64,000 nt of DNA from Escherichia coli (GTDB taxonomy: Bacteria; Pseudomonadota; Gammaproteobacteria; Enterobacterales; Enterobacteriaceae), in assembly GCF_002854065.1 (NCBI RefSeq), contig NZ_CP024147.1. One strand, 5' to 3'. The first letter of the stretch is position 1; the number at the start of each line of letters is the position of its first letter. The translations under genes and the position numbers were made by a program. Of the stretch, positions 3,058-60,631 are shown in pieces. The notes below the pieces were generated by a model that was given only the letters and a program-made list of their open reading frames with translations, searched no databases and was not told the origin of the DNA.

Positions 3058-3134
3058 TGGTGCATCCGGGAGGATTCGAACCTCCGACCGCTCGGTTCGT
3101 AGCCGAGTACTCTATCCAGCTGAGCTACGGATGC
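3058..3134 (-). tRNA. argQ: tRNA-Arg (anticodon ACG)
   Basis: Reverse complement gives GCATCCGTAGCTCAGCTGGATAGAGTACTCGGCTACGAACCGAGCGGTCGGAGGTTCGAATCCTCCCGGATGCACCA; copy name assigned by order only. Confidence 0.93.
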
Positions 3135-3236
3135 ATCGGGAAAATTTATTTTACTGCTGATATTGATATCGCTACTAAAGCCATATCAAATAAGAAAATC
3201 CATCTTAACCATCATCACTGATGATTACGGAGAATA

Positions 3237-3313
3237 TGGTGCATCCGGGAGGATTCGAACCTCCGACCGCTCGGTTCGTAGCCGAGTACTCTATCCAGCT
3301 GAGCTACGGATGC
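3237..3313 (-). tRNA. argZ: tRNA-Arg (anticodon ACG)
   Basis: Identical 77-nt tRNA-Arg sequence; copy name by order only. Confidence 0.93.
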
Positions 3314-3375
3314 ATCGGGAAATTTATTTTACTGCTGATATTGATACCGCTACTAAAGCCATATCAAGTAAGAGA

Positions 3376-3452
3376 TGGTGCATCCGGGAGGATTCGAACC
3401 TCCGACCGCTCGGTTCGTAGCCGAGTACTCTATCCAGCTGAGCTACGGATGC
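3376..3452 (-). tRNA. argY: tRNA-Arg (anticodon ACG)
   Basis: Identical 77-nt tRNA-Arg sequence; copy name by order only. Confidence 0.93.
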
Positions 3453-3535
3453 ATCGGGAAACTTACTTTACTGCAGATTTTTTGATACCGCTACTAAAGC
3501 CGTATCAAGTAAGAGATGGTGCATCCGGGAGGATT

Positions 3536-3651
3536 ACTCGCCTTGCGGCTCGCCCTTCGGGCCGTTGCTAAAGCAACGTTATCCTCCCTGGTGCCTGCGG
3601 TTAGTACCGCCACCTCTTCCATACCTTCATCGCTGAAGGTTACGGAGAATA
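3536..3651 (-). repeat. Repeat unit 2: truncated tRNA-Arg 3' end (3536-3554, 19 nt) fused to a ~97-bp hairpin-rich module, directly abutting the 3' end of the fourth tRNA-Arg
   Basis: TGGTGCATCCGGGAGGATT then divergence; same CGTTGCTAAAGCAACG / GCCCTTCGGGC module as unit 1. Confidence 0.7.
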
Positions 3652-3728
3652 TGGTGCATCCGGGAGGATTCGAACCTCCGACCGCTCGGTTCGTAGCCGA
3701 GTACTCTATCCAGCTGAGCTACGGATGC
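3652..3728 (-). tRNA. argV: tRNA-Arg (anticodon ACG)
   Basis: Identical 77-nt tRNA-Arg sequence, 3 bp from tRNA-Ser. Confidence 0.93.
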
Positions 3729-3731
3729 AAA

Positions 3732-3824
3732 TGGCGGTGAGGCGGGGATTCGAACCCCGGATGCAGCTTTTGACCGCATACTCCCTTAGCAGGGGAGCGC
3801 CTTCAGCCTCTCGGCCACCTCACC
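3732..3824 (-). tRNA. serV: tRNA-Ser (anticodon GCU)
   Basis: Reverse complement gives GGTGAGGTGGCCGAGAGGCTGAAGGCGCTCCCCTGCTAAGGGAGTATGCGGTCAAAAGCTGCATCCGGGGTTCGAATCCCCGCCTCACCGCCA with long variable arm. Confidence 0.93.
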
Positions 3825-27896: not shown

Positions 27897-28314
27897 TCAA
27901 AGAAACCATTCAGGCTTAACGCCAAATCGGGCTGAAAGTGCCTTAATGTGGGATATCGTCAGGGATCGTTGTCCAGACAAGATCTGGCTGACCAGGGATT
28001 TAGAACCGATTTCGTTCTTCAAATCCGCATAGTCAGATTATGTTGATCAATCAGCGTACGAAGTAACGCTACGCCAACCGGCATTGCCGCAACGGCTTTG
28101 TCGAACTCTGCAAACTTTTCGTTGTTGTTTTCATATTCTGCAATGCGGCTCGCCAGAAAGTCGATAAGTGGATTGGTGTCATCTTCTTCAATCAATATTC
28201 GACCAGTTCCAGTGCTTCACGATAATCATCTTCTGAGTCACTGCCTCCCAGAAAGGGGACTGCATTGACCAGTTCTCTTGTTGCTTTAACAGCGCGTGCA
28301 GCATTAGCAGTCAT
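27897..28314 (-). pseudogene. HigA-family (HTH_XRE) antitoxin-like gene disrupted by two 1-bp deletions
   Basis: Three consecutive frames encode MTANAARAVKATRELVNAVPFLGGSDSEDDYREALELVEY / IEEDDTNPLIDFLASRIAEYENNNEKFAEFDKAVAAMPVGVALLRTLIDQHNLTM / DLKNEIGSKSLVSQILSGQRSLTISHIKALSARFGVKPEWFL, together a ~139-aa HigA-like protein. Confidence 0.7.
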
Positions 28315-28549
28315 TCTTTGTTCTCTCTGTAGTATCGTATCAGACGCCCACTTTTCTAAAATGCCAGGTTTGCTCGGCATCATAAGGCATGGTCAGGAGA
28401 GGTTTCAGCGCCCGCTTTTGCGCATATTCGCTGTCACTCATTGGCAGATATTCGGTAAAGCTGGTGGCCTGTGCAGGCAGCACTAAGCTCAATAAAAAAG
28501 CGCACATCCCTGTTCTGATGTTCAATTCCCTGAATTCCCTAATGAAGAA

Positions 28550-42901: not shown

Positions 42902-43246
42902 TTATTTCTTTGGACGATATTTTTCTGGCAACTCCGGCACCGGACGCTTGTCATCGATGAGATGACGCACGGTTAAGATCGGATGACGCCACAGCATTCT
43001 CGGCCCGGCCCAACGCATAATCTGTTTCATCTCTTCACGCTTTGCAGGCTGGTAACAGTGCACCGGACACTGCTTACAGGCTGGCTTCTCTTCGCCGAAC
43101 ACACATTTATCCAGCCGCTTTTGCGCGTAAACAAACAACGCCTCGTAATGCTCCGGCTCCGCTGACGCCTGCGGGCATTTCGCTTGATAAAGATCGATCA
43201 TTTTTTTAATCGTCAGTTTTTCACGAGAGATACGCTTGCCGGACAT
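42902..43246 (-). CDS. ygbA: YgbA-family protein (NsrR-regulon, nitrosative stress induced)
   Basis: 114-aa ORF MSGKRISREKLTIKKMIDLYQAKCPQ with CxxC...CxxC cysteines. Confidence 0.85.
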   Translation of the reverse strand: MSGKRISREKLTIKKMIDLYQAKCPQASAEPEHYEALFVYAQKRLDKCVFGEEKPACKQCPVHCYQPAKREEMKQIMRWAGPRMLWRHPILTVRHLIDDKRPVPELPEKYRPKK

Positions 43247-43261
43247 ACTGCCTCCACCTCA

Positions 43262-43294
43262 TTAAGATGCATTTATATTACAACTTAATCTTAA
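43262..43294. promoter_or_regulatory. Putative NsrR operator in the ygbA promoter region
   Basis: TTAAGATGCATTTatattacaacttAATCTTAA: AAGATGCATTT matches the NsrR half-site as I recall it; outer arms are inverted repeats. Confidence 0.5.
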
Positions 43295-43532
43295 AGGGCA
43301 CTATGACTCTAAAGAAGAAGGGTTAGCCAACCGATACAATTTTGCGTACTTGCTTCATAAGCATCACGCAAAAGCTGCAAAACAGCATCTTTCCCGGAAC
43401 CAGCATCAAGAACTCGCCGTTCGCTTCTTCCCCTGAAATGATTAACTCCGGTATCATGTGCGCCTTATGTGATTACAACGAAAATAAAAACCATCACACC
43501 CCATTTAATATCAGGGAACCGGACATAACCCC

Positions 43533-46094
43533 ATGAGTGCAATAGAAAATTTCGACGCCCATACGCCCATGATGCAGCAGTATCTCAAGCTGAAAGCCCA
43601 GCATCCCGAGATCCTGCTGTTTTACCGGATGGGTGATTTTTATGAACTGTTTTATGACGACGCAAAACGCGCGTCGCAACTGCTGGATATTTCACTGACC
43701 AAACGCGGTGCTTCGGCGGGAGAGCCGATCCCGATGGCGGGGATTCCCTACCATGCGGTGGAAAACTACCTCGCCAAACTGGTGAATCAGGGCGAGTCCG
43801 TTGCCATCTGCGAACAAATTGGCGATCCGGCGACCAGCAAAGGTCCGGTTGAGCGCAAAGTTGTGCGTATCGTTACGCCAGGCACCATCAGCGATGAAGC
43901 CCTGTTGCAGGAGCGTCAGGACAACCTGCTGGCGGCTATCTGGCAGGACAGCAAAGGTTTCGGCTACGCGACGCTGGATATCAGCTCCGGGCGTTTTCGC
44001 CTGAGCGAACCGGCTGACCGGGAAACGATGGCGGCAGAACTGCAACGCACTAATCCTGCGGAATTGCTGTATGCAGAAGATTTTGCTGAAATGTCGTTAA
44101 TTGAAGGCCGTCGCGGCCTGCGCCGTCGCCCGCTGTGGGAGTTTGAAATCGACACCGCGCGCCAGCAGTTGAATCTGCAATTTGGGACCCGCGATCTGGT
44201 CGGTTTTGGCGTCGAGAACGCGCCGCGCGGACTTTGTGCTGCCGGTTGTCTGTTGCAGTATGCGAAAGATACCCAACGTACGACTCTGCCGCATATTCGT
44301 TCCATCACCATGGAACGTGAGCAGGACAGCATCATTATGGATGCCGCGACGCGTCGTAATCTGGAAATCACCCAGAACCTGGCGGGTGGTGCGGAAAATA
44401 CGCTGGCTTCTGTGCTCGACTGCACCGTCACGCCGATGGGCAGCCGTATGCTGAAACGCTGGCTGCATATGCCAGTGCGCGATACCCGCGTGTTGCTTGA
44501 GCGCCAGCAAACTATTGGCGCATTGCAGGATTTCACCGCCGAGTTACAGCCGGTACTGCGTCAGGTGGGCGATCTGGAACGTATTCTGGCGCGTCTGGCG
44601 TTGCGTACTGCTCGCCCGCGCGATCTGGCCCGTATGCGCCATGCTTTCCAGCAACTGCCGGAACTGCGCGCGCAGTTAGAAAATGTCGATAGTGCACCGG
44701 TACAGGCGCTGCGTGAGAAGATGGGCGAGTTTGCCGAACTGCGCGATCTGCTGGAGCGGGCAATCATCGACACACCACCAGTGCTGGTACGCGACGGTGG
44801 TGTTATCGCACCGGGCTATAACGAAGAGCTGGATGAGTGGCGGGCGCTGGCTGACGGCGCGACCGATTATCTGGAGCGTCTGGAAATCCGCGAGCGTGAA
44901 CGTACCGGCCTGGACACGCTGAAAGTCGGATTTAACGCGGTGCATGGTTATTACATTCAGATCAGCCGTGGACAAAGCCATCTGGCCCCCATCAACTACA
45001 TGCGTCGCCAGACGCTGAAAAATGCCGAGCGCTACATTATTCCAGAGCTAAAAGAGTACGAAGATAAAGTTCTCACCTCAAAAGGCAAAGCACTGGCACT
45101 GGAAAAACAGCTTTATGAAGAGCTGTTCGACCTGCTGTTGCCGCATCTGGAAGCGTTGCAACAGAGCGCAAGCGCGCTGGCAGAACTTGATGTGCTGGTT
45201 AACCTGGCGGAGCGGGCCTATACCCTGAACTACACCTGCCCGACTTTTATTGATAAACCGGGTATTCGCATCACCGAAGGCCGCCATCCGGTGGTTGAAC
45301 AGGTGCTGAATGAGCCGTTTATCGCCAACCCGCTGAACCTGTCGCCACAGCGTCGCATGTTGATCATTACCGGTCCGAATATGGGCGGTAAAAGTACCTA
45401 TATGCGCCAGACCGCACTGATTGCGCTGATGGCCTACATCGGCAGCTATGTACCGGCACAAAAAGTTGAGATTGGACCTATCGATCGCATCTTTACCCGC
45501 GTAGGGGCAGCGGATGATCTGGCATCCGGGCGTTCAACCTTTATGGTGGAAATGACCGAAACCGCCAATATTTTACATAACGCCACCGAATACAGTCTGG
45601 TGTTAATGGATGAGATCGGGCGTGGAACGTCCACTTACGATGGTCTGTCACTGGCATGGGCGTGCGCGGAAAATCTGGCGAATAAGATTAAGGCATTGAC
45701 GCTGTTTGCTACCCACTATTTCGAGCTGACCCAGTTACCGGAGAAAATGGAAGGCGTCGCCAACGTGCATCTCGATGCACTGGAGCACGGCGACACCATT
45801 GCCTTTATGCATAGCGTGCAGGATGGCGCGGCGAGCAAAAGCTACGGCCTGGCGGTTGCAGCTCTGGCGGGCGTGCCAAAAGAGGTGATTAAGCGCGCAC
45901 GGCAAAAACTGCGTGAGCTGGAAAGTATTTCGCCGAACGCCGCCGCTACACAAGTGGATGGTACGCAAATGTCTTTGCTGTCAGTACCGGAAGAAACCTC
46001 GCCAGCGGTCGAAGCTCTGGAAAATCTCGACCCGGATTCACTAACTCCGCGTCAGGCGCTGGAATGGATTTATCGCTTGAAGAGTCTGGTGTAA
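43533..46094 (+). CDS. mutS: DNA mismatch repair protein MutS
   Basis: 853-aa [43 protein letters not shown] with Walker [10 protein letters not shown]. Confidence 0.98.
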
Positions 46095-46100
46095 TAACAA

Positions 46101-46135
46101 TTCCCGATAGAAAAATACTATCGGGAATATTATCT
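46101..46135 (+). terminator. mutS rho-independent terminator
   Basis: TTCCCGATAGaaaaatacCTATCGGGAA hairpin followed by a T-rich tract. Confidence 0.7.
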
Positions 46136-46199
46136 ACAGCTGACGAATCAAATAAAAATACCCTGTATAATAGGAAAGTTTATTTTACAGGGTAAAACC

Positions 46200-46856
46200 A
46201 TGCCATCTACACGCTATCAAAAAATCAATGCCCATCACTATCGCCATATATGGGTCGTTGGTGATATTCATGGTGAATATCAGTTATTACAATCCCGCTT
46301 ACATCAACTCTCTTTTTTCCCCGAAACCGACTTACTTATTTCTGTCGGCGATAATATTGATCGTGGGCCGGAGAGTCTTGACGTCCTGCGCCTGCTAAAC
46401 CAGCCCTGGTTTATCTCCGTTAAAGGCAACCACGAAGCAATGGCGCTGGATGCGTTCGCGACCGGCGATGGCAATATGTGGCTTGCCAGCGGTGGTGACT
46501 GGTTCTTTGAGTTAAATGATATGGAACAAAAAGAAGCTATAGGTCTATTGCTGAAATTTCATCAACTTCCACATATTATTGAAATTACCAACGACATTAT
46601 AAAATATGTCATCGCACATGCGGATTATCCGGGCAATGAATATCTCTTTGGCGGACAAATAGCGGAGAGCGAATTACTTTGGCCTGTTGATCGTGTGCAG
46701 AAATCTCTTAATGGCGAGTTACAACAAATAAACGGCGCTGATTATTTTATATTTGGACATATGATGCTTGATAACATTCAGACGTTCGCTAACCAGATTT
46801 ATATTGATACCGGATCGCCGAAAAGCGGGCGGCTGTCATTTTATAAAATAAAGTAG
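46200..46856 (+). CDS. pphB: Serine/threonine protein phosphatase 2 (calcineurin-like)
   Basis: 218-aa ORF with GDIHG and GNHE metallophosphatase motifs. Confidence 0.93.
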   Translation: MPSTRYQKINAHHYRHIWVVGDIHGEYQLLQSRLHQLSFFPETDLLISVGDNIDRGPESLDVLRLLNQPWFISVKGNHEAMALDAFATGDGNMWLASGGDWFFELNDMEQKEAIGLLLKFHQLPHIIEITNDIIKYVIAHADYPGNEYLFGGQIAESELLWPVDRVQKSLNGELQQINGADYFIFGHMMLDNIQTFANQIYIDTGSPKSGRLSFYKIK

Positions 46857-46857
46857 T

Positions 46858-46883
46858 CTCATGCTTCTTCTGTGAAGCATGAG
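46858..46883. terminator. Bidirectional terminator hairpin between convergent pphB and ygbI
   Basis: CTCATGCTTCttctgtGAAGCATGAG perfect stem-loop. Confidence 0.65.
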
Positions 46884-46906
46884 TAACCCGGTGTTATTGC
46901 AGGCCA

Positions 46907-47704
46907 TTATTCATTTTTCGCTACCAGCAAAGAGAGATCCTGCTTCGCCAGCGCGCGACTGGCACTCTCCGGCAAACCGTCGTCTGTAATAATCTGATCA
47001 AACTCGCTTAATGGTAACGCCAGCCATGTCGCCACCTGACCATATTTCGTCGCATCACAGACCAAAACTCGCTGGCGGCTGGCACTGGCAATCGCCCGTT
47101 TCACCGTGACTTTATCTTCCGCTGGCGTAGAAATCCCCCGCAAACTCCATGACGATGCAGAAATAAAAGCCTGATCAATCATCAGGCTGCGCAGCATGGT
47201 CGCAGCGGCTTCCCCGACACAGGAACGGTTTTCCCGACACACTGCACCGCCAGTGTGAATAATTGTGCAATTACTGTTGTCGAGCAAGTAGTCCGCAATA
47301 ACGAAATCGTTTGTGACCACAGTCAGTGACTCCATGTGAATCAGATGCTGTGCTATCGCTAACGTGGTCGTTCCCGCATCCAGATAGATACAACTTCCCG
47401 GCTGAACAAGACTTGCCGCCAGCTTGCCAATAGCCGCTTTTTGCGTCATTGCCAGCGCAGTTTTTACCTGATGAGAAGGTTCATGCGCCACGCGTCCCGG
47501 AGACTGGACGCCTCCGGATACCAGCACAACGGCTCCCTGCTGCTCCAGTTTTTGTAAATCCCGACGAATGGTCATATGTGACACATTCATTCTGTCCGTT
47601 AGTTCAGCAATACTGACAATGCCTTTTTCAGCTACCATCTCAAGGATGATTTGGCGACGCTCTACGGGTATCAACTTTTGCTCCTTCCTTTGTCCTGCTG
47701 ACAT
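46907..47704 (-). CDS. ygbI: DeoR-family transcriptional regulator
   Basis: ORF with N-terminal HTH (MTIRRDLQKLEQQG) and DeoR sugar-binding domain; start codon not resolved. Confidence 0.85.
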   Translation of the reverse strand: MSAGQRKEQKLIPVERRQIILEMVAEKGIVSIAELTDRMNVSHMTIRRDLQKLEQQGAVVLVSGGVQSPGRVAHEPSHQVKTALAMTQKAAIGKLAASLVQPGSCIYLDAGTTTLAIAQHLIHMESLTVVTNDFVIADYLLDNSNCTIIHTGGAVCRENRSCVGEAAATMLRSLMIDQAFISASSWSLRGISTPAEDKVTVKRAIASASRQRVLVCDATKYGQVATWLALPLSEFDQIITDDGLPESASRALAKQDLSLLVAKNE

Positions 47705-47869
47705 TCTACGCTATTTGCCTGCGAAACGTGCGCGGCGCAACTAACGCTTAGTTCACATAAAATAACACACAATGTTAATTTTTGTGAATCAGCTCACCAT
47801 ATCGTTATCTTCCAGCGCTTATATTCACAATATCAAACAAAATATCACTTAAATTAACAATGAGAGCAG

Positions 47870-48777
47870 ATGAAAACGGGATCTAGTTTCATGTCGGTAT
47901 CGTTGGCTTAGGGTCAATGGGAATGGGAGCAGCACTGTCATGTGTCCGCGCAGGTCTTTCTACCTGGGGCGCAGACCTGAACAGCAATGCCTGCGCTACG
48001 TTGAAAGAGGCAGGTGCTTGCGGGGTTTCTGATAACGCCGCGACGTTTGCCGAAAAACTGGACGCTCTGCTGGTGCTGGTGGTCAATGCGGCCCAGGTTA
48101 AACAGGTGCTGTTTGGTGAAACAGGCGTTGCACAACATCTGAAACCCGGTACGGCAGTAATGGTTTCTTCCACTATCGCTAGTGCTGATGCGCAAGAAAT
48201 TGCTACCGCTCTGGCTGGATTCGATCTGGAAATGCTGGATGCGCCAGTTTCTGGTGGTGCAGTAAAAGCCGCTAACGGTGAAATGACTGTCATGGCCTCC
48301 GGTAGCGATATTGCCTTTGAACGACTGGCACCCGTGCTGGAAGCCGTTGCCGGAAAAGTTTATCGCATAGGTGCAGAACCGGGACTAGGTTCGACCGTAA
48401 AAATTATTCACCAGTTGTTAGCGGGCGTACATATTGCTGCCGGAGCCGAAGCGATGGCACTTGCAGCCCGTGCGGGGATCCCGCTGGATGTGATGTATGA
48501 CGTCGTGACCAATGCCGCCGGAAATTCCTGGATGTTCGAAAACCGGATGCGTCATGTGGTGGATGGCGATTACACCCCGCATTCAGCCGTCGATATTTTT
48601 GTTAAGGATCTTGGTCTGGTTGCCGATACAGCCAAAGCCCTGCACTTCCCGCTGCCATTGGCCTCAACAGCATTGAATATGTTCACCAGCGCCAGTAACG
48701 CGGGTTACGGGAAAGAAGACGATAGCGCAGTTATCAAGATTTTCTCTGGCATCACTCTACCGGGAGCGAAATCATGA
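47870..48777 (+). pseudogene. ygbJ: 3-hydroxyisobutyrate dehydrogenase-family oxidoreductase with a -1 frameshift near codon 6
   Basis: ATG at 47870 gives MKTGSSFMSVSLA* in one frame; the Rossmann motif VGIVGLGSMGMG is encoded in another frame directly upstream of the track ORF (47917), preceded by in-frame TAG at 47884-47886. Confidence 0.75.
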
Positions 48778-50036
48778 TCAAGATTGGCGTTATCGCCGAT
48801 GATTTTACCGGCGCGACGGATATCGCCAGTTTTCTGGTGGAAAACGGTCTACCAACGGTACAAATTAACGGTGTTCCAACAGGTAAAATGCCGGAAGCAA
48901 TCGACGCACTGGTGATCAGCCTGAAAACGCGTTCCTGTCCGGTGGTTGAAGCCACACAGCAATCGCTGGCGGCTCTGAGCTGGTTGCAACAGCAAGGTTG
49001 CAAACAGATCTATTTCAAATACTGCTCTACTTTCGACAGTACGGCTAAAGGTAATATCGGCCCGGTTACCGATGCATTAATGGATGCTCTCGACACGCCG
49101 TTTACGGTCTTCTCTCCGGCCCTGCCGGTCAACGGACGTACGGTTTATCAGGGGTATTTGTTCGTAATGAATCAACTGCTGGCCGAATCCGGGATGCGCC
49201 ATCACCCGGTAAATCCCATGACCGACAGCTATCTTCCCCGTCTGGTTGAAGCGCAATCCACAGGGCGCTGCGGCGTCGTTTCGGCACATGTTTTCGAACA
49301 AGGTGTGGATGCCGTTCGTCAAGAGCTGGCTCGCTTACAGCAAGAGGGCTACCGCTACGCGGTGCTTGATGCGCTGACCGAACACCATCTGGAAATTCAG
49401 GGAGAAGCCTTGCGCGATGCCCCACTGGTAACGGGCGGTTCTGGTCTGGCGATTGGCCTGGCCCGGCAGTGGGCGCAAGAAAACGGTAACCAGGCTCGCA
49501 AAGCAGGGCATCCGCTCGCTGGGCGCGGCGTAGTGCTCTCCGGTTCATGCTCTCAAATGACCAACCGCCAGGTGGCACATTACCGTCAAATTGCACCAGC
49601 CCGTGAAGTTGATGTGGCACGCTGCCTCTCAATTGAAACTCTGGCCGCTTATGCACACGAACTGGCAGAGTGGGTTCTGGGCCAGGAAAGTGTACTTGCT
49701 CCACTGGTTTTTGCCACCGCCAGCACTGACGCATTGGCAGCAATTCAACAGCAATACGGTGCACAAAAAGCCAGTCAGGCAGTAGAAACACTGTTTTCTC
49801 AACTAGCGGCGCGGTTAGCAGCGGAAGGCGTGACACGCTTTATTGTCGCAGGCGGTGAGACCTCCGGCGTAGTCACACAGAGCCTGGGAATAAAAGGGTT
49901 TCATATTGGCCCAACCATTTCCCCCGGCGTGCCGTGGGTAAACGCACTGGATAAGCCTGTCTCACTCGCCCTTAAATCTGGCAACTTCGGTGATGAAGCC
50001 TTTTTTTCACGAGCCCAAAGAGAGTTTTTATCATGA
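48774..50036 (+). CDS. ygbK: Four-carbon acid sugar kinase family protein
   Basis: 420-aa ORF in operon position, overlaps ygbJ by 4 bp. Confidence 0.85.
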   Translation: MIKIGVIADDFTGATDIASFLVENGLPTVQINGVPTGKMPEAIDALVISLKTRSCPVVEATQQSLAALSWLQQQGCKQIYFKYCSTFDSTAKGNIGPVTDALMDALDTPFTVFSPALPVNGRTVYQGYLFVMNQLLAESGMRHHPVNPMTDSYLPRLVEAQSTGRCGVVSAHVFEQGVDAVRQELARLQQEGYRYAVLDALTEHHLEIQGEALRDAPLVTGGSGLAIGLARQWAQENGNQARKAGHPLAGRGVVLSGSCSQMTNRQVAHYRQIAPAREVDVARCLSIETLAAYAHELAEWVLGQESVLAPLVFATASTDALAAIQQQYGAQKASQAVETLFSQLAARLAAEGVTRFIVAGGETSGVVTQSLGIKGFHIGPTISPGVPWVNALDKPVSLALKSGNFGDEAFFSRAQREFLS

Positions 50037-50671
50037 GCGATTTCGCAAAAGTAGAGCAGTCTTTGCGAGAGGAGATGACGCGGATTGCCAGTTCATTCTT
50101 TCAGCGCGGCTATGCAACCGGTTCGGCTGGCAATCTGTCGCTGCTTTTACCTGACGGGAATTTACTGGCGACACCGACAGGTTCATGCCTGGGCAATCTC
50201 GAGCCGCAGCGGCTTTCCAAAGTCGCCGCGGATGGCGAATGGTTAAGTGGTGACAAACCCTCGAAAGAGGTGCTCTTTCATCTGGCGCTGTATCGCAACA
50301 ATCCGCGCTGTAAAGCGGTGGTGCATTTGCACAGCACATGGTCGACGGCGCTTTCCTGCCTGCAAGGGCTGGACAGCAGCAACGTTATTCGTCCGTTCAC
50401 ACCATACGTGGTGATGCGGATGGGAAATGTCCCGCTGGTGCCTTATTACCGACCGGGCGATAAACGCATCGCACAGGATCTGGCGGAACTGGCAGCAGAC
50501 AATCAGGCTTTTTTACTGGCAAATCATGGCCCAGTGGTTTGCGGTGAAAGCCTGCAAGAAGCCGCCAACAATATGGAAGAGCTGGAGGAAACGGCAAAGC
50601 TGATTTTTATTCTCGGTGACCGCCCGATCCGTTATCTGACCGCAGGTGAAATTGCGGAATTAAGGAATTAA
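50033..50671 (+). CDS. ygbL: Class II aldolase/adducin-family protein
   Basis: 212-aa ORF with class II aldolase fold signature (HxH region). Confidence 0.85.
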
Positions 50672-50675
50672 TGCA

Positions 50676-51452
50676 ATGCCTCGTTTTGCAGCTAATTTAT
50701 CCATGATGTTCACCGAAGTGCCTTTTATTGAACGCTTCGCCGCAGCGCGAAAAGCCGGGTTCGATGCTGTGGAATTTCTGTTTCCCTATAACTACTCCAC
50801 CCTGCAAATCCAAAAGCAACTGGAGCAAAACCATCTGACACTGGCGCTGTTCAATACCGCTCCCGGAGATATTAATGCGGGGGAATGGGGATTATCCGCC
50901 CTTCCCGGACGTGAGCACGAAGCACACGCAGACATCGACCTGGCACTGGAATATGCATTGGCGCTCAATTGTGAACAAGTCCATGTAATGGCAGGCGTCG
51001 TGCCCGCTGCCGAAGATGCTGAACGGTACCGGGCAGTATTTATCGATAATCTCCGCTACGCTGCCGACCGCTTTGCGCCACACGGCAAGCGAATATTAGT
51101 TGAAGCACTCAGCCCCGGCATTAAGCCTCATTATCTCTTCTCCAGCCAGTATCAGGCACTGGCTATTGTTGAAGAAGTTGCGCGAGATAACGTGTTTATT
51201 CAACTAGATACTTTTCATGCGCAAAAAGTAGATGGCAACCTGACGCATTTAATCCGCGACTACGCCGGGAAATATGCGCACGTACAAATTGCCGGACTAC
51301 CTGATCGACATGAACCGGACGATGGAGAAATCAACTATCCGTGGCTGTTCCGCCTGTTCGATGAGGTGGGATATCAGGGCTGGATCGGTTGTGAATATAA
51401 ACCTCGTGGCCTCACCGAAGAAGGACTTGGCTGGTTTGACGCCTGGCGCTAA
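50676..51452 (+). CDS. ygbM: Xylose isomerase-like TIM-barrel protein (hydroxypyruvate isomerase family)
   Basis: 258-aa [24 protein letters not shown]. Confidence 0.85.
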
Positions 51453-51540
51453 TTCGTTAAATCCCTAATTACAACGTACCCATACATCCCCCCATCTACG
51501 GATGGGGTAGGTTAACTATAACTTTCAGACAGGGTTTCCC

Positions 51541-52836
51541 ATGTCCACAATTACATTGTTATGCATTGCGTTAACTGGCGTAATCATGCTGTTGCTGCTG
51601 GTCATCAAGGCAAAGGTACAACCATTCGTTGCTCTGCTCCTCGTCAGCCTGTTAGTCGCACTTGCGGCGGGTATACCGGCGGGCGAAGTGGGTAAAGTGA
51701 TGATCGCCGGGATGGGCGGTGTGCTTGGTTCCGTCACTATTATTATTGGTCTGGGCGCTATGCTGGGGCGTATGATCGAACACTCTGGTGGTGCAGAGTC
51801 ACTGGCTAATTATTTCAGTCGCAAGTTAGGTGACAAACGAACTATCGCTGCGCTGACTCTGGCAGCGTTCTTCCTCGGTATTCCCGTCTTCTTTGATGTC
51901 GGCTTTATTATTCTTGCGCCAATCATTTACGGTTTTGCCAAGGTTGCCAAAATATCGCCACTCAAATTTGGCCTGCCTGTCGCTGGGATCATGCTAACTG
52001 TACATGTGGCGGTACCGCCGCATCCAGGCCCTGTCGCCGCAGCAGGGTTACTCCACGCAGACATCGGCTGGCTAACCATCATCGGTATTGCGATTTCTAT
52101 TCCCGTAGGGATTGTTGGCTACTTTGCAGCGAAAATAATCAATAAGCGCCAATATGCGATGTCGGTGGAAGTACTGGAACAGATGCAACTGGCTCCGGCC
52201 AGTGAGGAAGGCGCGACAAAATTAAGCGATAAAATAAATCCACCGGGCGTCGCGCTGGTCACCTCGCTAATTGTTATTCCTATCGCGATTATCATGGCGG
52301 GTACGGTTTCCGCAACACTGATGCCGCCTTCGCATCCCCTGCTTGGTACGCTACAGCTGATCGGCTCACCAATGGTAGCTCTAATGATTGCGCTGGTGCT
52401 GGCATTCTGGTTATTGGCTTTACGTCGCGGCTGGAGCTTACAACACACCAGCGACATTATGGGCTCAGCGCTTCCTACTGCGGCGGTAGTGATTTTGGTT
52501 ACTGGTGCTGGAGGGGTATTTGGCAAAGTGCTGGTGGAATCGGGCGTCGGCAAAGCCCTTGCCAACATGTTACAAATGATTGACCTGCCTCTGTTACCAG
52601 CCGCATTTATTATTTCACTGGCGCTGCGTGCATCGCAGGGGTCAGCAACCGTAGCAATACTGACAACCGGCGGGTTACTCTCAGAAGCGGTGATGGGATT
52701 GAATCCGATTCAGTGCGTATTGGTGACGCTGGCAGCCTGCTTTGGTGGGCTTGGTGCGTCACATATTAATGACTCAGGGTTCTGGATTGTGACCAAATAT
52801 CTGGGATTGTCGGTAGCAGACGGTCTGAAAACCTAG
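51541..52836 (+). CDS. ygbN: GntP-family permease, apparently truncated by an in-frame TAG
   Basis: 431-aa polytopic ORF; the 22 codons after the TAG (TVLTTILGFTGFLITWCVWAVI, ending TGA at 52903-52905) are in frame and hydrophobic. Confidence 0.8.
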   Translation: MSTITLLCIALTGVIMLLLLVIKAKVQPFVALLLVSLLVALAAGIPAGEVGKVMIAGMGGVLGSVTIIIGLGAMLGRMIEHSGGAESLANYFSRKLGDKRTIAALTLAAFFLGIPVFFDVGFIILAPIIYGFAKVAKISPLKFGLPVAGIMLTVHVAVPPHPGPVAAAGLLHADIGWLTIIGIAISIPVGIVGYFAAKIINKRQYAMSVEVLEQMQLAPASEEGATKLSDKINPPGVALVTSLIVIPIAIIMAGTVSATLMPPSHPLLGTLQLIGSPMVALMIALVLAFWLLALRRGWSLQHTSDIMGSALPTAAVVILVTGAGGVFGKVLVESGVGKALANMLQMIDLPLLPAAFIISLALRASQGSATVAILTTGGLLSEAVMGLNPIQCVLVTLAACFGGLGASHINDSGFWIVTKYLGLSVADGLKT

Positions 52837-52912
52837 ACAGTGTTAACGACCATTCTCGGTTTTACCGGATTCTTAATTACCTGGTGCGTATGGGCGGTAA
52901 TTTGACCTTAAT

Positions 52913-52943
52913 AAAAAGGTCCGATGAGCATCGGACCTTTTAT
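52913..52943. terminator. Bidirectional terminator between ygbN and the convergent decarboxylase operon
   Basis: AAAAAGGTCCGATGagcaTCGGACCTTTTATTT, stem-loop flanked by A-run and T-run. Confidence 0.75.
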
Positions 52944-53180
52944 TTAGCGCTTATCTGCCGCCAGCAGCGGCGGAATGCTCGGCACCATTGGCGCGTCATC
53001 AATATCTTTCTGCGTCATGCGGAACTCTTCGGGATAATGTTCGCGGCTGGTACGGCGCAGCGGTTCGGTATCGCGCCAGGTATAAAGGCAATGCTGGCAC
53101 TGATATACCGTCCAGACATCTTTCACCGGCGATTTCGCCATCACTTCAATCTGTTCATCGGCACAACGTGGACAAATCAT
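52944..53180 (-). CDS. Small subunit of a UbiD-type aromatic acid decarboxylase (YclD/KpdD-like)
   Basis: 78-aa ORF MICPRCADEQIEVMAKSPVKDVWTVYQCQHC with CxxC...CxxC zinc-ribbon-like cysteines, immediately after the UbiD-like gene. Confidence 0.75.
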   Translation of the reverse strand: MICPRCADEQIEVMAKSPVKDVWTVYQCQHCLYTWRDTEPLRRTSREHYPEEFRMTQKDIDDAPMVPSIPPLLAADKR

Positions 53181-53190
53181 CTTCTTCTCC

Positions 53191-54618
53191 TTATTTACGT
53201 GCAGCCAGCATAGCGGTCAGTTTTTCAGCCCAGGCTTTGGTTTCCGGCAAATCCACCACCGGCTGGCTGTAGTGACCACGGTTGTCCGGGGCGACAGGCG
53301 TGGTGGCGTCGATAATCAGCTTGTCGGTGATCCCCGCCGGGCTTGAGCCAGGGTCGAGTTCCAGCACGGACATATTCGGCAACTGCACCAAATCCCCTGC
53401 CGGGTTCACTTTCGAGGAGAGCGCCCACATCACCTGCGGCAGGTTGAACGGATCAACGTCTTCATCGACCATAATCACCATCTTCACGTAGCCCAGACCG
53501 TGCGGCGTGGTCATCGCGCGCAGGCCCACCGCGCGGGCAAAGCCGCCGTAGCGTTTTTTGGTGGAGATAATCGCCAGCAGGCCGTGGGTGTACATGGCGT
53601 TTACCGCCTGCACTTCCGGGAACTCGGCTTTCAGTTGTTGATATAGCGGTACGCAGGTGGCTGGCCCCATCAGGTAGTCGATTTCGGTCCACGGCATGCC
53701 GAGGTACAGCGATTCGAAAATCGGCCTGGTGCGGTAAGAGACTTTATCGATGCGCACCACGGTCATGTTACGCCCGCCGGAGTAGTGTCCGGTAAACTCA
53801 CCGAACGGCCCTTCGATTTCGCGTTTACGGCTTTCGATGACCCCTTCGAGGATCGCTTCTGAACCCCACGGCACATCAAAACCGGTCAGCGGGGCGGTGG
53901 CGATCGGGTACGAGCTTTCACGCAGCGCGCCTGCCATTTCATACTCAGACTGATCGTATTTCAGCGGCGTGGCCCCCATCAGCGTGATGATCGGATCGTT
54001 ACCGAGCGTGATCGCAATCGGCAGATCTTCACCGCGCTCTTCTGCTTTATGCAGATGCAGGGCGATATCGTGCATCGGCACCGGTTGCAGGCCGAGCTTA
54101 CGCTTGCCCTTCACTTCCATGCGGTAGATGCCGACGTTCTGCTTGCCGAAGTTATCCGGGTCGAGCGGATCGCGGGAAACCACGCACGCTTTGTCGAGAT
54201 AGAAACCGCCATCACCGTCGTTTAAACGAAACAGCGGCAGGATATCGAACAGATTAATCTCGTCACCATCGACGGTGTTCTGCGCCCAGGCTGGATTGGC
54301 GCGGCGCTCCGGGGCAATCGGGAAGTTATCCCAGCGGCGGATAAACTCATCAATCTGTTTTTTAACCGGGGTGTTTGGCGGCAGGCCCAAGGAAATCGCG
54401 TGGTTCTGCCAGGAACCGATGGTATTCATCGCCACGCGGGCATCGGTAAAACCGCGAATATTATCAAACCACAGCGCCGGTGCACCATCGCCGATACGCC
54501 CGGTGGCGTTGGCAGCGGCAGCCAGATCCGGTTCCGCGTTCACCTCTTCGCTGATTTTCAGTAACTGGCCGTGGTCATCAAGCGCCTGTAAAAAGCTGCG
54601 TAAATCATCAAATGCCAT
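53191..54618 (-). CDS. UbiD-family (prenylated-FMN dependent) decarboxylase
   Basis: 475-aa ORF MAFDDLRSFLQALDDHGQLLKISEEVNAEPDLAAAANA typical of UbiD/phenolic acid decarboxylase subunit C. Confidence 0.85.
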   Translation of the reverse strand: MAFDDLRSFLQALDDHGQLLKISEEVNAEPDLAAAANATGRIGDGAPALWFDNIRGFTDARVAMNTIGSWQNHAISLGLPPNTPVKKQIDEFIRRWDNFPIAPERRANPAWAQNTVDGDEINLFDILPLFRLNDGDGGFYLDKACVVSRDPLDPDNFGKQNVGIYRMEVKGKRKLGLQPVPMHDIALHLHKAEERGEDLPIAITLGNDPIITLMGATPLKYDQSEYEMAGALRESSYPIATAPLTGFDVPWGSEAILEGVIESRKREIEGPFGEFTGHYSGGRNMTVVRIDKVSYRTRPIFESLYLGMPWTEIDYLMGPATCVPLYQQLKAEFPEVQAVNAMYTHGLLAIISTKKRYGGFARAVGLRAMTTPHGLGYVKMVIMVDEDVDPFNLPQVMWALSSKVNPAGDLVQLPNMSVLELDPGSSPAGITDKLIIDATTPVAPDNRGHYSQPVVDLPETKAWAEKLTAMLAARK

Positions 54619-55211
54619 TATTCATTCTCCTGAGAAAAATTCCGGGCCTGCGGCAATCCTTGCCAGCGCCTGGCGTAGGGATGTTCAAGGCCAAATTGAT
54701 CCAGCACGCGGGCTACCACGTGGTGGACAATGTCATCTACCGTTTCGGGATGGTTATAAAAGGCAGGCATCGGCGGCACCATCGCCACGCCCATGCGTGA
54801 AAGTGCGAGCATATTTTCGAGATGGATGGTGTTAAGCGGCATTTCACGCGGCACCAGTACCAGTTTGCGGCCTTCTTTGAGCACGACGTCCGCCGCGCGC
54901 CCTACCAGGCCATCGGCGTAACCAGCGCGGATACCGGCGAGCGTTTTCATACTGCACGGAATAACGATCATGCCGTCGGTACGAAAGGAACCTGAGGAGA
55001 TGGTCGCCGCCTGATCCGCCGGGTTATGGCTGAAGTCAGCGAGGGCAGCAACATCGCGGGCGCTGTAAGGCGTTTCCAGTTCAATGGTGGTTTTCGCCCA
55101 CTTCGACATCACCAGATGAGTCTCGATATTCGGCATCTCCTGCAGCGCTTGCAGTAATGCCACACCAAGAGGCGCACCGGTAGCCCCTGTCATCCCGACG
55201 ATCAGTTTCAT
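54618..55211 (-). CDS. UbiX/Pad1-family flavin prenyltransferase
   Basis: 197-aa ORF MKLIVGMTGATGAPLGVALLQAL with flavoprotein motif; stop overlaps the UbiD-like start. Confidence 0.85.
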   Translation of the reverse strand: MKLIVGMTGATGAPLGVALLQALQEMPNIETHLVMSKWAKTTIELETPYSARDVAALADFSHNPADQAATISSGSFRTDGMIVIPCSMKTLAGIRAGYADGLVGRAADVVLKEGRKLVLVPREMPLNTIHLENMLALSRMGVAMVPPMPAFYNHPETVDDIVHHVVARVLDQFGLEHPYARRWQGLPQARNFSQENE

Positions 55212-55324
55212 TGCTTACTCTCTTAATTGTTCGTATACGAACGTTATTATTAAAATACGCCTCTGTTCTCATTGCGGCAAGCACTGAAAAGTAACAACAT
55301 CCCCTTCGTCACTGAAAAACCGCT

Positions 55325-55765
55325 ATGATAGCGGCAGATAGTTTGCCCGGAGTTTACATGGCGTTACGAAATAAAGCGTTCCATCAGTTACGACAGCTTT
55401 TTCAGCAGCACACATCTCGCTGGCAGCACGAGTTACCTGACCTGACCAAACCACAGTATGCGGTGATGCGTGCCATTGCTGATAAGCCTGGTATCGAACA
55501 GGTGGCACTGATAGAAGCAGCAGTCAGCACCAAAGCAACGCTGGCAGAAATGTTGGCAAGAATGGAAAATCGTGGCTTAGTCAGACGTGAACATGACGCC
55601 GCTGATAAGCGGCGACGCTTTGTCTGGCTGACTGCCGAAGGAGAAAAGATACTTGCTGCGGCGATACCGATTGGTGACAGCGTGGATGAGGAATTTTTGG
55701 GGCGTTTGAGTGCAGAAGAGCAGGAGCTGTTTATGCAGCTGGTGCGCAAGATGATGAACACATAG
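55325..55765 (+). CDS. MarR/SlyA-family transcriptional regulator, divergent from the decarboxylase operon
   Basis: 146-aa ORF with winged-helix region TKPQYAVMRAIADKPGIEQVALIEAA; true start may be the internal Met at 55358. Confidence 0.8.
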   Translation: MIAADSLPGVYMALRNKAFHQLRQLFQQHTSRWQHELPDLTKPQYAVMRAIADKPGIEQVALIEAAVSTKATLAEMLARMENRGLVRREHDAADKRRRFVWLTAEGEKILAAAIPIGDSVDEEFLGRLSAEEQELFMQLVRKMMNT

Positions 55766-55833
55766 GATGCAAATTGCCGGGTAGGACGCTGACGTGTCTT
55801 ATCCAGGCGACAAAAACACATGCTTCCCAAACA

Positions 55834-55872
55834 AAAGAAAAAAGGCCAGCCTCGCTTGAGACTGGCCTTTCT
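55834..55872 (-). terminator. rpoS rho-independent terminator
   Basis: Minus strand GGCCAGTCTCAAGCGAGGCTGGCC hairpin followed by TTTTTTCTTTTG. Confidence 0.75.
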
Positions 55873-55885
55873 GACAGATGCTTAC

Positions 55886-56878
55886 TTATTCGCGGAACAG
55901 CGCTTCGATATTCAGCCCCTGCGTTTGCAGGATTTCGCGCAAACGGCGCAGGCCTTCAACCTGAATCTGGCGAACACGTTCACGGGTGAGGCCAATTTCA
56001 CGACCTACATCTTCCAGTGTTGCCGCTTCGTACCCAAGCAAACCGAATCGACGTGCCAGCACTTCACGCTGTTTGGCGTTCAGTTCGAACAGCCATTTGA
56101 CGATGCTCTGCTTCATATCGTCATCTTGCGTGGTATCTTCCGGACCGTTCTCTTTTTCATCGGCCAGGATGTCCAGCAACGCTTTTTCGGAATCACCACC
56201 CAGCGGGGTGTCTACCGAGGTAATGCGCTCGTTAAGACGAAGCATACGGCTGACGTCATCAACTGGCTTATCCAGTTGCTCTGCGATCTCTTCCGCACTT
56301 GGTTCATGGTCCAGCTTATGGGACAACTCACGTGCGGTTCGCAGGTAAACGTTCAGCTCCTTTACGATGTGAATCGGCAAACGAATAGTACGGGTTTGGT
56401 TCATAATCGCCCGTTCAATCGTCTGGCGAATCCACCAGGTTGCGTATGTTGAGAAGCGGAAACCACGTTCCGGGTCAAACTTCTCTACCGCGCGGATCAG
56501 CCCCAGGTTGCCCTCTTCGATAAGGTCCAGCAACGCCAGACCACGATTGCCATAACGGCGGGCAATTTTTACCACCAGACGCAAGTTACTCTCGATCATC
56601 CGGCGGCGAGAGGCGACATCTCCACGCAGTGCGCGACGCGCAAAATAAACTTCTTCTTCGGCCGTTAACAGTGGTGAATAACCAATCTCACCAAGGTAAA
56701 GCTGAGTCGCGTCCAACACACGCTGTGTGGCTCCCTGCGATAACAGTTCCTCTTCGGCCAAATCGTTATCACTGGGTTCCTCTTCTACTAAGGCCTTTTC
56801 GTCAAAAACCTCAACTCCGTTCTCATCAAATTCCGCATCTTCATTTAAATCATGAACTTTCAGCGTATTCTGACTCAT
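55886..56878 (-). CDS. rpoS: Stationary-phase sigma factor RpoS (sigma38), apparently intact
   Basis: ORF contains [37 protein letters not shown]; start set at MSQNTL (330 aa); codon 33 is GAG (Glu). Confidence 0.97.
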
Positions 56879-56940
56879 AAGGTGGCTCCTACCCGTGATC
56901 CCTTGACGGAACATTCAAGCAAAAGCCTGGTTCCGCCGAT

Positions 56941-58080
56941 TTATCGCTGCGGCAAATAACGCAGCGGGTTTACGGATTTCCCCTTGTAACGAATTTCAAA
57001 ATGCAAGCGTGTTGAACTGGTTCCGGTGCTACCCATGGTTGCTATTTTTTGCCCCGCCTTCACTTCTTGTTGTTCCCGGACCAGCATTGTGTCGTTATGG
57101 GCGTAGGCACTCAGGTAATCATCATTATGTTTGATGATAATCAGATTACCGTAGCCGCGCAGCGCGTTACCGGCATAAACAACGCGGCCATCTGCGGTCG
57201 CGATAATTGCCTGTCCTTTGCTGCCTGCGATATCAATCCCCTTGTTGCCCCCCTCAGAAGCGCCAAAGGTTTCGATCACTTTGCCCTCAGTCGGCCAGCG
57301 CCAGGTGGAGATAGGCGTACTGGTTGATGTACTGCTGACAGTCGGCTCGGTTGTGCTTGCTGTTGGTACCGTTACAGGCGCTGTGACCGTGGTCGCAGTT
57401 GGCTTGTTGTTCGGCAACATTTTGTTAGCACTCTGTTCACCCGAAGACTCAGAATACGTAATTGTCGGTTGCGACGCAACAGCAACGGTGGAATTTTGTG
57501 CAGGCTTGATCACAACTCCTTGCTCTGCTGCGTCGGCCTGGGTAATGGCATTTCCGCCAGTGATTGGCGTACCGGAAGCATTACCCACCTGTAAGGTCTG
57601 ACCGACGTTCAGCGCGTATGGTGCCTGAATATTGTTGCGCTGAGCAAGGTCACGGAAATCGTTGCCAGTAATCCAGGCGATATAGAAAAGTGTGTCGCCT
57701 TTTTTCACGGTATAGGTACTGCCGCTATAACTGCCTTTCGGAATGTTCCCATACTGACGGTTATAGACGATGCGTCCGTTTTCCATCTGTACCGGCTGCT
57801 GAGCTACTGGCTGCACTGGCTGGATTTGCGGTTGTTGAGTAGCCTGAATTTGTGGCTGCTGTACCGGCTGAATTTGCGGTTGCTGGGCTGTAGACGTCGT
57901 CCCCATTTTCGGCGGCGGCGTAATCAACATACCAGAATTGGTATTTGCAGGCGCATTGCCATTAACGGAGCTGACCGGTGCCGGTGGATTTGAAGTGTCA
58001 GAACAGCCTGCCAGCCATAGCGAAACCAGTGACAAAGCCGCAATGCGGCGAACGGTGAATTTTGGGCTTCCCGCGCTCAT
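56941..58080 (-). CDS. nlpD: Murein hydrolase activator lipoprotein NlpD (LysM + M23 peptidase-like)
   Basis: 379-aa ORF with lipobox LAGCS and Q/P-rich repeats. Confidence 0.95.
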
Positions 58081-58219
58081 TTATCCCCCAGGAAAAATTG
58101 GTTAATAACCAGTGACATAATTACCGTGCAAGGCACCATACTGAACACTGGAAAAGATGTTCACGATACGCTGACCTGCGGCAAAATAACCAGGAAAAAT
58201 CCAGGTATTTCCTCACGTT

Positions 58220-59581
<1,362 letters not shown>

Positions 59582-59601
<20 letters not shown>

Positions 59602-60631
59602 AATCACCTGTTGTGTTGATAAGTTCCCTGACAACGCTGGTTGCAAAACTACCCGCCGGAAGCCAGAAACGGATCTCTACGGTGACGTCATCCCACCAAT
59701 TCCAGCTTAATTGTTGCGGATACAGCAGCATCGCTCTGCGCGCGGCTTCAACTTTTTCGCGCACCAGTAAAGCTTGTAATTCAGTTTCTGCGGCGACAGC
59801 TGCTTGTTCGAATGCCAGCGCTTCACGCTGAGTTCCCCATTCGCCACTGCCCGGCAATGCGGCTGTTATCATCAGCTCTTTATCGTTGACGCGACGCTGT
59901 AATTCCGCCAGTTCTTCGGTGGTTGCTACAAACCAGCTACCACGTCCGGCTAATTGTAGCGCATCGCCGTCAACAACTTGATTAACGTCTGCTTTTTTGA
60001 GGCGCTCAGCAACAATCTGATTAAACAACGCACTGCGGGCTGCCGACAACCAAAAACTCCGTTTATTGCGATCGCGCACCGGAGTATTGGTTTGCGCCCA
60101 GCGCAGCGCGCCCTGCAAGTTGCTACCGCCAATCCCAAAACGTTGGGCACCGAAGTAGTTCGGTACACCTTTTACGCAAATATCGATCAGACGTTGTTCA
60201 ACGTCATCGCGATTGCTCACTTCGCGCAGAACCAGGGTAAAGGCGTTACCTTTCAGCGCCCCTAAACGCAGCTTGCGCTTGTGCCGCGTATACTCCAGCA
60301 CCTGGCAGCCTTCCAATTGAAAGGCGCTCAGATCGGGCATTTCCTTGCCCGGCACGCGAGCGCATAACCACTGTTCTGTAACAGCATGTTTGTCTTTTTG
60401 CCCAGCAAAGCTGACTTCACGGGCATGAATTTTCAGGAATTTCGCCAGTGCATCCGCCACAAAACGGGTATTGCAGCCGTTTTTGAGGATTCTAACCAGA
60501 ATATGCTCACCTTCACCATCAGGCTCAAAGCCCAAATCTTCCACCACCACAAAGTCTTCCGGATTGGCTTTCAGCAGCCCGGTGCCTTGCGGTTTACCGT
60601 GGAGGTAAGTGAGATTATCAAACTCAATCAT
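59582..60631 (-). CDS. truD: tRNA pseudouridine(13) synthase TruD
   Basis: 349-aa [30 protein letters not shown]. Confidence 0.93.

Follow-up and report, generated by a model that had tools for sequence, protein, structure and literature searches.

Full-length rpoS with a glutamate codon at position 33 in an Escherichia coli genome close to wastewater isolate CUWW06

The rpoS gene found in the window, by which we mean the whole 64,000-nucleotide stretch of Escherichia coli DNA analysed here (GCF_002854065.1, contig NZ_CP024147.1), is very probably the standard wild-type gene of a natural E. coli closely related to CUWW06, and encodes a 330-aa sigma-S with Glu33. RpoS is the stationary-phase and general-stress sigma factor, sigma-S (sigma-38). 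The Glu33 allele is already known, and the result is best taken as a useful negative that in itself matters little: with no lesion in rpoS, there is no need to assume a defect in this gene when interpreting the stress phenotypes of the strain.

The rpoS reading frame and its product

The gene and the codon under study were located as follows.

55886..56878, minus strand: intact rpoS coding sequence of 330 codons and a terminal TAA
56780..56782, minus strand: codon 33, GAG (Glu), where MG1655 has CAG (Gln)

The coding sequence spans 993 nt between the first base of its ATG (56878) and the last base of its TAA (55886), and contains one stop codon in frame, the terminal one. The initial annotation had described a fully open 330-aa frame with GAG at codon 33, and both statements held, the codon lying exactly at 56782..56780. 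In the list of open reading frames the frame appears with 342 aa, from an in-frame ATG at 56914, 12 codons upstream of 56878. Annotations of K-12 MG1655, CUWW06, and strain 100416 all start rpoS at the ATG corresponding to 56878, and a GGAG motif lies 8 nt upstream of this ATG in an intact Shine-Dalgarno region. According to the open reading frames and the RefSeq annotation of near-identical genomes, rpoS immediately follows nlpD, and pcm and surE are also upstream. Two open reading frames on the plus strand (55820-56452 and 55986-56348) run antisense over rpoS, a highly conserved coding gene; they are annotated in none of the near-identical genomes.

Alignment to reference alleles had been proposed as the check on this gene. 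Run over the full length of MG1655 rpoS, it was gapless with four nucleotide differences, and we found no frameshift or premature stop anywhere in rpoS. The difference at nt 97 (G here, C in MG1655) converts codon 33 from Gln to Glu, and the other three, in codons 265, 281, and 330, are synonymous. Q33E is the sole amino-acid difference between the two proteins, which have the same residue at 329 of 330 positions. Measured against MG1655 and the public protein collection, RpoS carries no rare missense changes. The exact protein occurs on at least 1000 contigs in that collection, under the name 'MULTISPECIES: RNA polymerase sigma factor RpoS [Enterobacteriaceae]'. Its 330 residues are those of RefSeq WP_000081550.1, an accession also annotated on CUWW06 and strain 100416, and the rpoS DNA is 100% identical to that of both.

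Profile searches placed the protein within the same family. It scored 604.6 bits against the NCBIfam RpoS equivalog NF004207 (cutoff 394; residues 1-329 of 329) and 480.7 bits against TIGR02394, also an RpoS equivalog (cutoff 378.7), and the Pfam domains Sigma70_r1_2 (56-88), r2 (94-163), r3 (174-248), and r4 (262-315) follow one another uninterrupted. Judged by these profiles, it is an RpoS of Enterobacteria with the group-2 sigma-70 architecture. Residue 33 falls in the acidic N-terminal segment, before region 1.2 (residue 56 onward). Save for Q33, the sequence in the solved structures of the sigma-S holoenzyme (5ipl, 6kj6, and 6omf) is that of the protein here.

Codon 33 across the species and the origin of the window

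Codon 33 had been presented as the classic polymorphic site of K-12 laboratory stocks, which PMC2700278 supports: some K-12 stocks have GAG at this codon, and natural isolates outside K-12 commonly carry it, all tested VTEC included (PMC2700278). All isolates in a further study carry 33E (PMC1852560), and Q33E 'has similar functional activity' (PMC3074542). We searched 5426 complete E. coli genomes with three versions (GAG, CAG, and TAG) of a 61-mer that has codon 33 at its centre. The GAG version was found exactly in 4818 of the 5414 genomes with a match, the CAG version in 173, and the TAG version in 121, counts that leave out about 300 genomes with other changes inside the 61-mer. The 40 CAG matches listed were all MG1655-type or other K-12 derivatives, and the 40 TAG matches listed comprised W3110, J53, cloning strains, O16:H48 derivatives, and BLR(DE3), a B strain. 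Glu is thus encoded at position 33 in about nine of every ten E. coli sequenced. GAG is the wild type throughout the species; the other two versions, CAG and TAG, are laboratory oddities. The polymorphism is informative for K-12 laboratory stocks only, Glu33 being the default in natural isolates. The initial annotation, taken as a whole, was therefore right about the GAG codon, the open frame, the polymorphic site, and the decay of neighbouring genes, but its K-12 context does not apply, since the window is not K-12 and GAG is the state of the species at large.

The nearest genome is that of the wastewater isolate CUWW06 (NZ_CP182139.1, Thailand). Over the 17 kb from 43000 to 60000, the window differs from it by three substitutions and one single-base deletion, and the first 43 kb adds about ten further differences; only 12 of the 5426 genomes match the 17 kb at an identity of at least 99%. 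Identity to K-12 is 99.0-99.7% for ygbI to ygbN, rpoS, nlpD, and pcm, compared with 96.6% for mutS and 93.3% for pphB. Divergence from K-12 is concentrated in 44364-46864, the 3' part of mutS together with pphB, where it reaches 4-8% against ∼0.5% in the flanks, and by this distribution the segment is a recombination mosaic. Mosaicism of this kind around mutS is known from earlier literature.

A segment foreign to K-12 separates ygbN from rpoS, with homology to K-12 ending right after the rpoS terminator on one side and right after the ygbN terminator on the other.

52944..55765: non-K-12 block of 2.9 kb between ygbN and rpoS
52944-53180, minus strand: hydroxyarylic acid decarboxylase subunit D
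53191-54618, minus strand: hydroxyarylic acid decarboxylase subunit C
54618-55211, minus strand: hydroxyarylic acid decarboxylase subunit B
55325-55765, plus strand: MarR/SlyA-like regulator

Several smaller differences were noted among the closest genomes. Relative to CUWW06, the window has a single-base deletion at 28033, within a helix-turn-helix gene (CUWW06 L004:27896-28314) whose CUWW06 copy already carries a frameshift annotation, and a small cluster of substitutions around 28339-28350. A nonsynonymous difference at 53026 gives decarboxylase subunit D E52 here and A in CUWW06. In strain 100416, the other genome with identical rpoS, an IS1 insertion splits pphB (L001:24024-25457), which is intact in the window, and beyond mutS there are an IS3 element and a fragment of an integrase.

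Two explanations that would change the meaning of the intact GAG allele were weighed against these data. If the window came from a K-12 laboratory lineage with Glu33, GAG would be informative on the history of the stock; such stocks exist (PMC2700278), and the 99.0-99.7% identity of ygbI to ygbN and rpoS to their K-12 counterparts is what that origin would give. Yet the mutS and pphB alleles are not those of K-12, the 2.9-kb MarR/decarboxylase block absent from K-12 takes the place of ygbN beside rpoS, the best match is CUWW06 with only a few differences per 17 kb, and rpoS itself has three further synonymous differences from K-12. By the mutS/pphB divergence, the block, and the nearest match, we regard a K-12 origin as ruled out, with practically no chance of being correct. 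The open frame could also be an artefact of the assembly, through a consensus hiding an rpoS-mutant subpopulation or through an uncorrected error. It is true that rpoS mutants arise readily in culture and that the two bases missing by comparison with CUWW06, at 28033 and 47885, could be assembly errors, but open reading frames are usually broken, not mended, by errors, and the independent assemblies of CUWW06 and strain 100416 agree with the window on rpoS base for base. We hold an artefact to be highly improbable and retain the reading of an ordinary natural allele.

The rpoS leader, promoter, and terminator

We then compared the control regions of rpoS with those of K-12, using the following features.

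56941..58080, minus strand: nlpD, the upstream gene carrying the rpoS promoter and leader
56879..57445, minus strand: rpoS 5' leader inside nlpD, 567 nt
55839..55872, minus strand: rpoS intrinsic terminator, a hairpin followed by a T run

For the length of 567 nt and the transcription start, we assumed the literature values. The 1422 nt upstream of the rpoS ATG align with K-12 without gaps and with nine differences, all synonymous in nlpD, and the NlpD protein is identical to that of K-12. Three of the differences, at -294, -183, and -162, fall in the leader. From -161 to the ATG the sequence is identical to K-12, and these last 161 nt presumably comprise the pairing site for DsrA/RprA/ArcZ, the inhibitory hairpin, and the ribosome-binding site. 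The changes at -183 and -162 flank the A-rich Hfq sites, (AAN)4 and A6, which we take to lie near 57075-57045. A 95-mer covering this Hfq-site segment, from -205 to -111, was found exactly in 4281 of 5417 genomes, O157:H7 included; the bases of the window at -183 and -162 are the majority alleles, and K-12 has the minority form. Relative to CUWW06, the base at 57248, which is -370 in the leader, is nonsynonymous in nlpD: the window has the K-12 base and encodes NlpD G278 as K-12 does, whereas CUWW06 has D.

No difference from K-12 occurs around -567, the site of the main promoter. A consensus promoter scan of 55300-57600 returned no sigma-70-like site, a result that carries no information, since the promoter region matches K-12 exactly and the K-12 promoter is known. 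At the other end of the gene, the terminator hairpin has 15 pairs, 7 of them G-C, followed by TTTTTTCTTTTGTTT, and the alignment with K-12 breaks just downstream of it, after GGCCTTTT. An Rfam scan of the whole window detected no RNA family in or beside rpoS. Its matches, MicA and five tRNAs, were all away from the gene: the MicA sRNA is at 76-147 on the plus strand, between luxS and gshA, and four identical-scoring tRNA (Arg) genes and one tRNA-Ser occupy 3061-3824 on the minus strand, upstream of csrA. Among the cis elements checked, the terminator, the Shine-Dalgarno sequence, and the promoter region show no damage, and in its Hfq-site part the leader has the majority E. coli sequence.

From established knowledge, rpoS in this strain would be transcribed mainly from the promoter within nlpD, and its long leader would fold so as to hide the ribosome-binding site until the Hfq-dependent sRNAs DsrA, RprA, and ArcZ open it. 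The protein would be controlled by RssB/ClpXP proteolysis and would steer RNA polymerase toward stress genes, katE and glg among them. A working RpoS, as expected in the initial annotation, is likely given the intact sequence, and we infer a normal RpoS phenotype for the strain. The strain could nevertheless be RpoS-low with an intact rpoS, through changes outside the window (for example in ppGpp/SpoT, RssB, Hfq, or sRNAs); the trans-acting regulators rssB, hfq, dsrA, rprA, arcZ, crl, and spoT all lie beyond it. Natural isolates give some grounds for this: sigma-S levels differ widely among strains with normal rpoS sequences, those of the ECOR strains being unexplained by rpoS sequence alone (PMC3074542), and sigma-S activity is variable among isolates that uniformly carry 33E (PMC1852560). 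However, such variation amounts to a background prior for natural isolates, and every cis element that could be checked here is standard, with no sign of a defect. We consider an RpoS-low state unlikely and a working sigma-S the better expectation.

Neighbouring gene decay and comparison with known systems

The decay of ygbJ and ygbN, to which the initial annotation had contrasted the open rpoS, was seen in both genes.

47870..48777, plus strand: ygbJ (ltnD), L-threonate dehydrogenase, frameshifted by a 1-bp deletion at 47885
51541..52905, plus strand: ygbN pseudogene, GntP-family transporter, amber at codon 432

In ygbJ, the deletion reduces codon 6 from GAG to AG and shifts the frame. CUWW06 and K-12 have an intact ygbJ, and the deletion, which is private to the window sequence and lies outside any homopolymer, may be real or may be an assembly error. 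In ygbN, codon 432 (52834-52836) has changed from TGG to TAG with loss of the last 23 residues. This amber is common to CUWW06 and strain 100416 (Gambia), and PGAP marks it as an 'internal stop'. Between the two genes, ygbK/otnK (3-oxo-tetronate kinase; 48774-50036) encodes 420 aa and overlaps ygbL. In the K-12 ygbK (L002:7336-8502), a 1-bp indel close to the 3' end shortens the product to 388 aa, and on this comparison, the K-12 copy is the decayed one.

One might see in this arrangement a clone whose rpoS stays untouched while the neighbouring L-threonate/tetronate utilisation cluster is inactivated, inside a recombination-imported mutS-pphB segment. We think this conjecture doubtful at best. 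If true, it would be a small case, in a lineage associated with wastewater, of niche-specific gene loss beside a recombination hot spot, and it would say nothing new about rpoS itself.

The block between ygbN and rpoS corresponds to a published arrangement. By gene order and primer positions, 52944-55765 is the known o454-nlpD 'pattern IV' (PMC4209514), the type of EPEC E2348/69, in which ygbN (o454), kpdD/C/B-like decarboxylase genes, a slyA-like MarR gene, and rpoS come in the same order as here. With the primers of that study, the in silico fhlA-nlpD amplicon is 15193 bp (published, 15.192 kb), the o454-nlpD amplicon is 4547 bp (published, 4.546 kb; primer F5 has one mismatch), and the slyA-nlpD amplicon is 1394 bp (published, 1.394 kb). 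The o454-yclC product differs, with 734 bp from the primer positions here compared with 716 bp tabulated for pattern IV (PMC4209514). The window further departs from pattern IV in that ygbN and ygbJ are inactivated.

Among known forms of the gene itself, the common natural allele RpoS-33E (WP_000081550.1) is alike over all 330 residues, with no difference. K-12 MG1655 RpoS (b2741, NP_417221.1; 33Q) has the same length, domains, start, and stop, but MG1655 differs in having CAG rather than GAG at codon 33, in the three synonymous changes, and in having ygbN as the downstream neighbour, where the window has the MarR/decarboxylase block. The K-12 rpoS(Am) allele of W3110, J53, and many cloning strains varies at the same polymorphic codon; there, TAG places a stop at codon 33, whereas the window's rpoS reads through that position without one.
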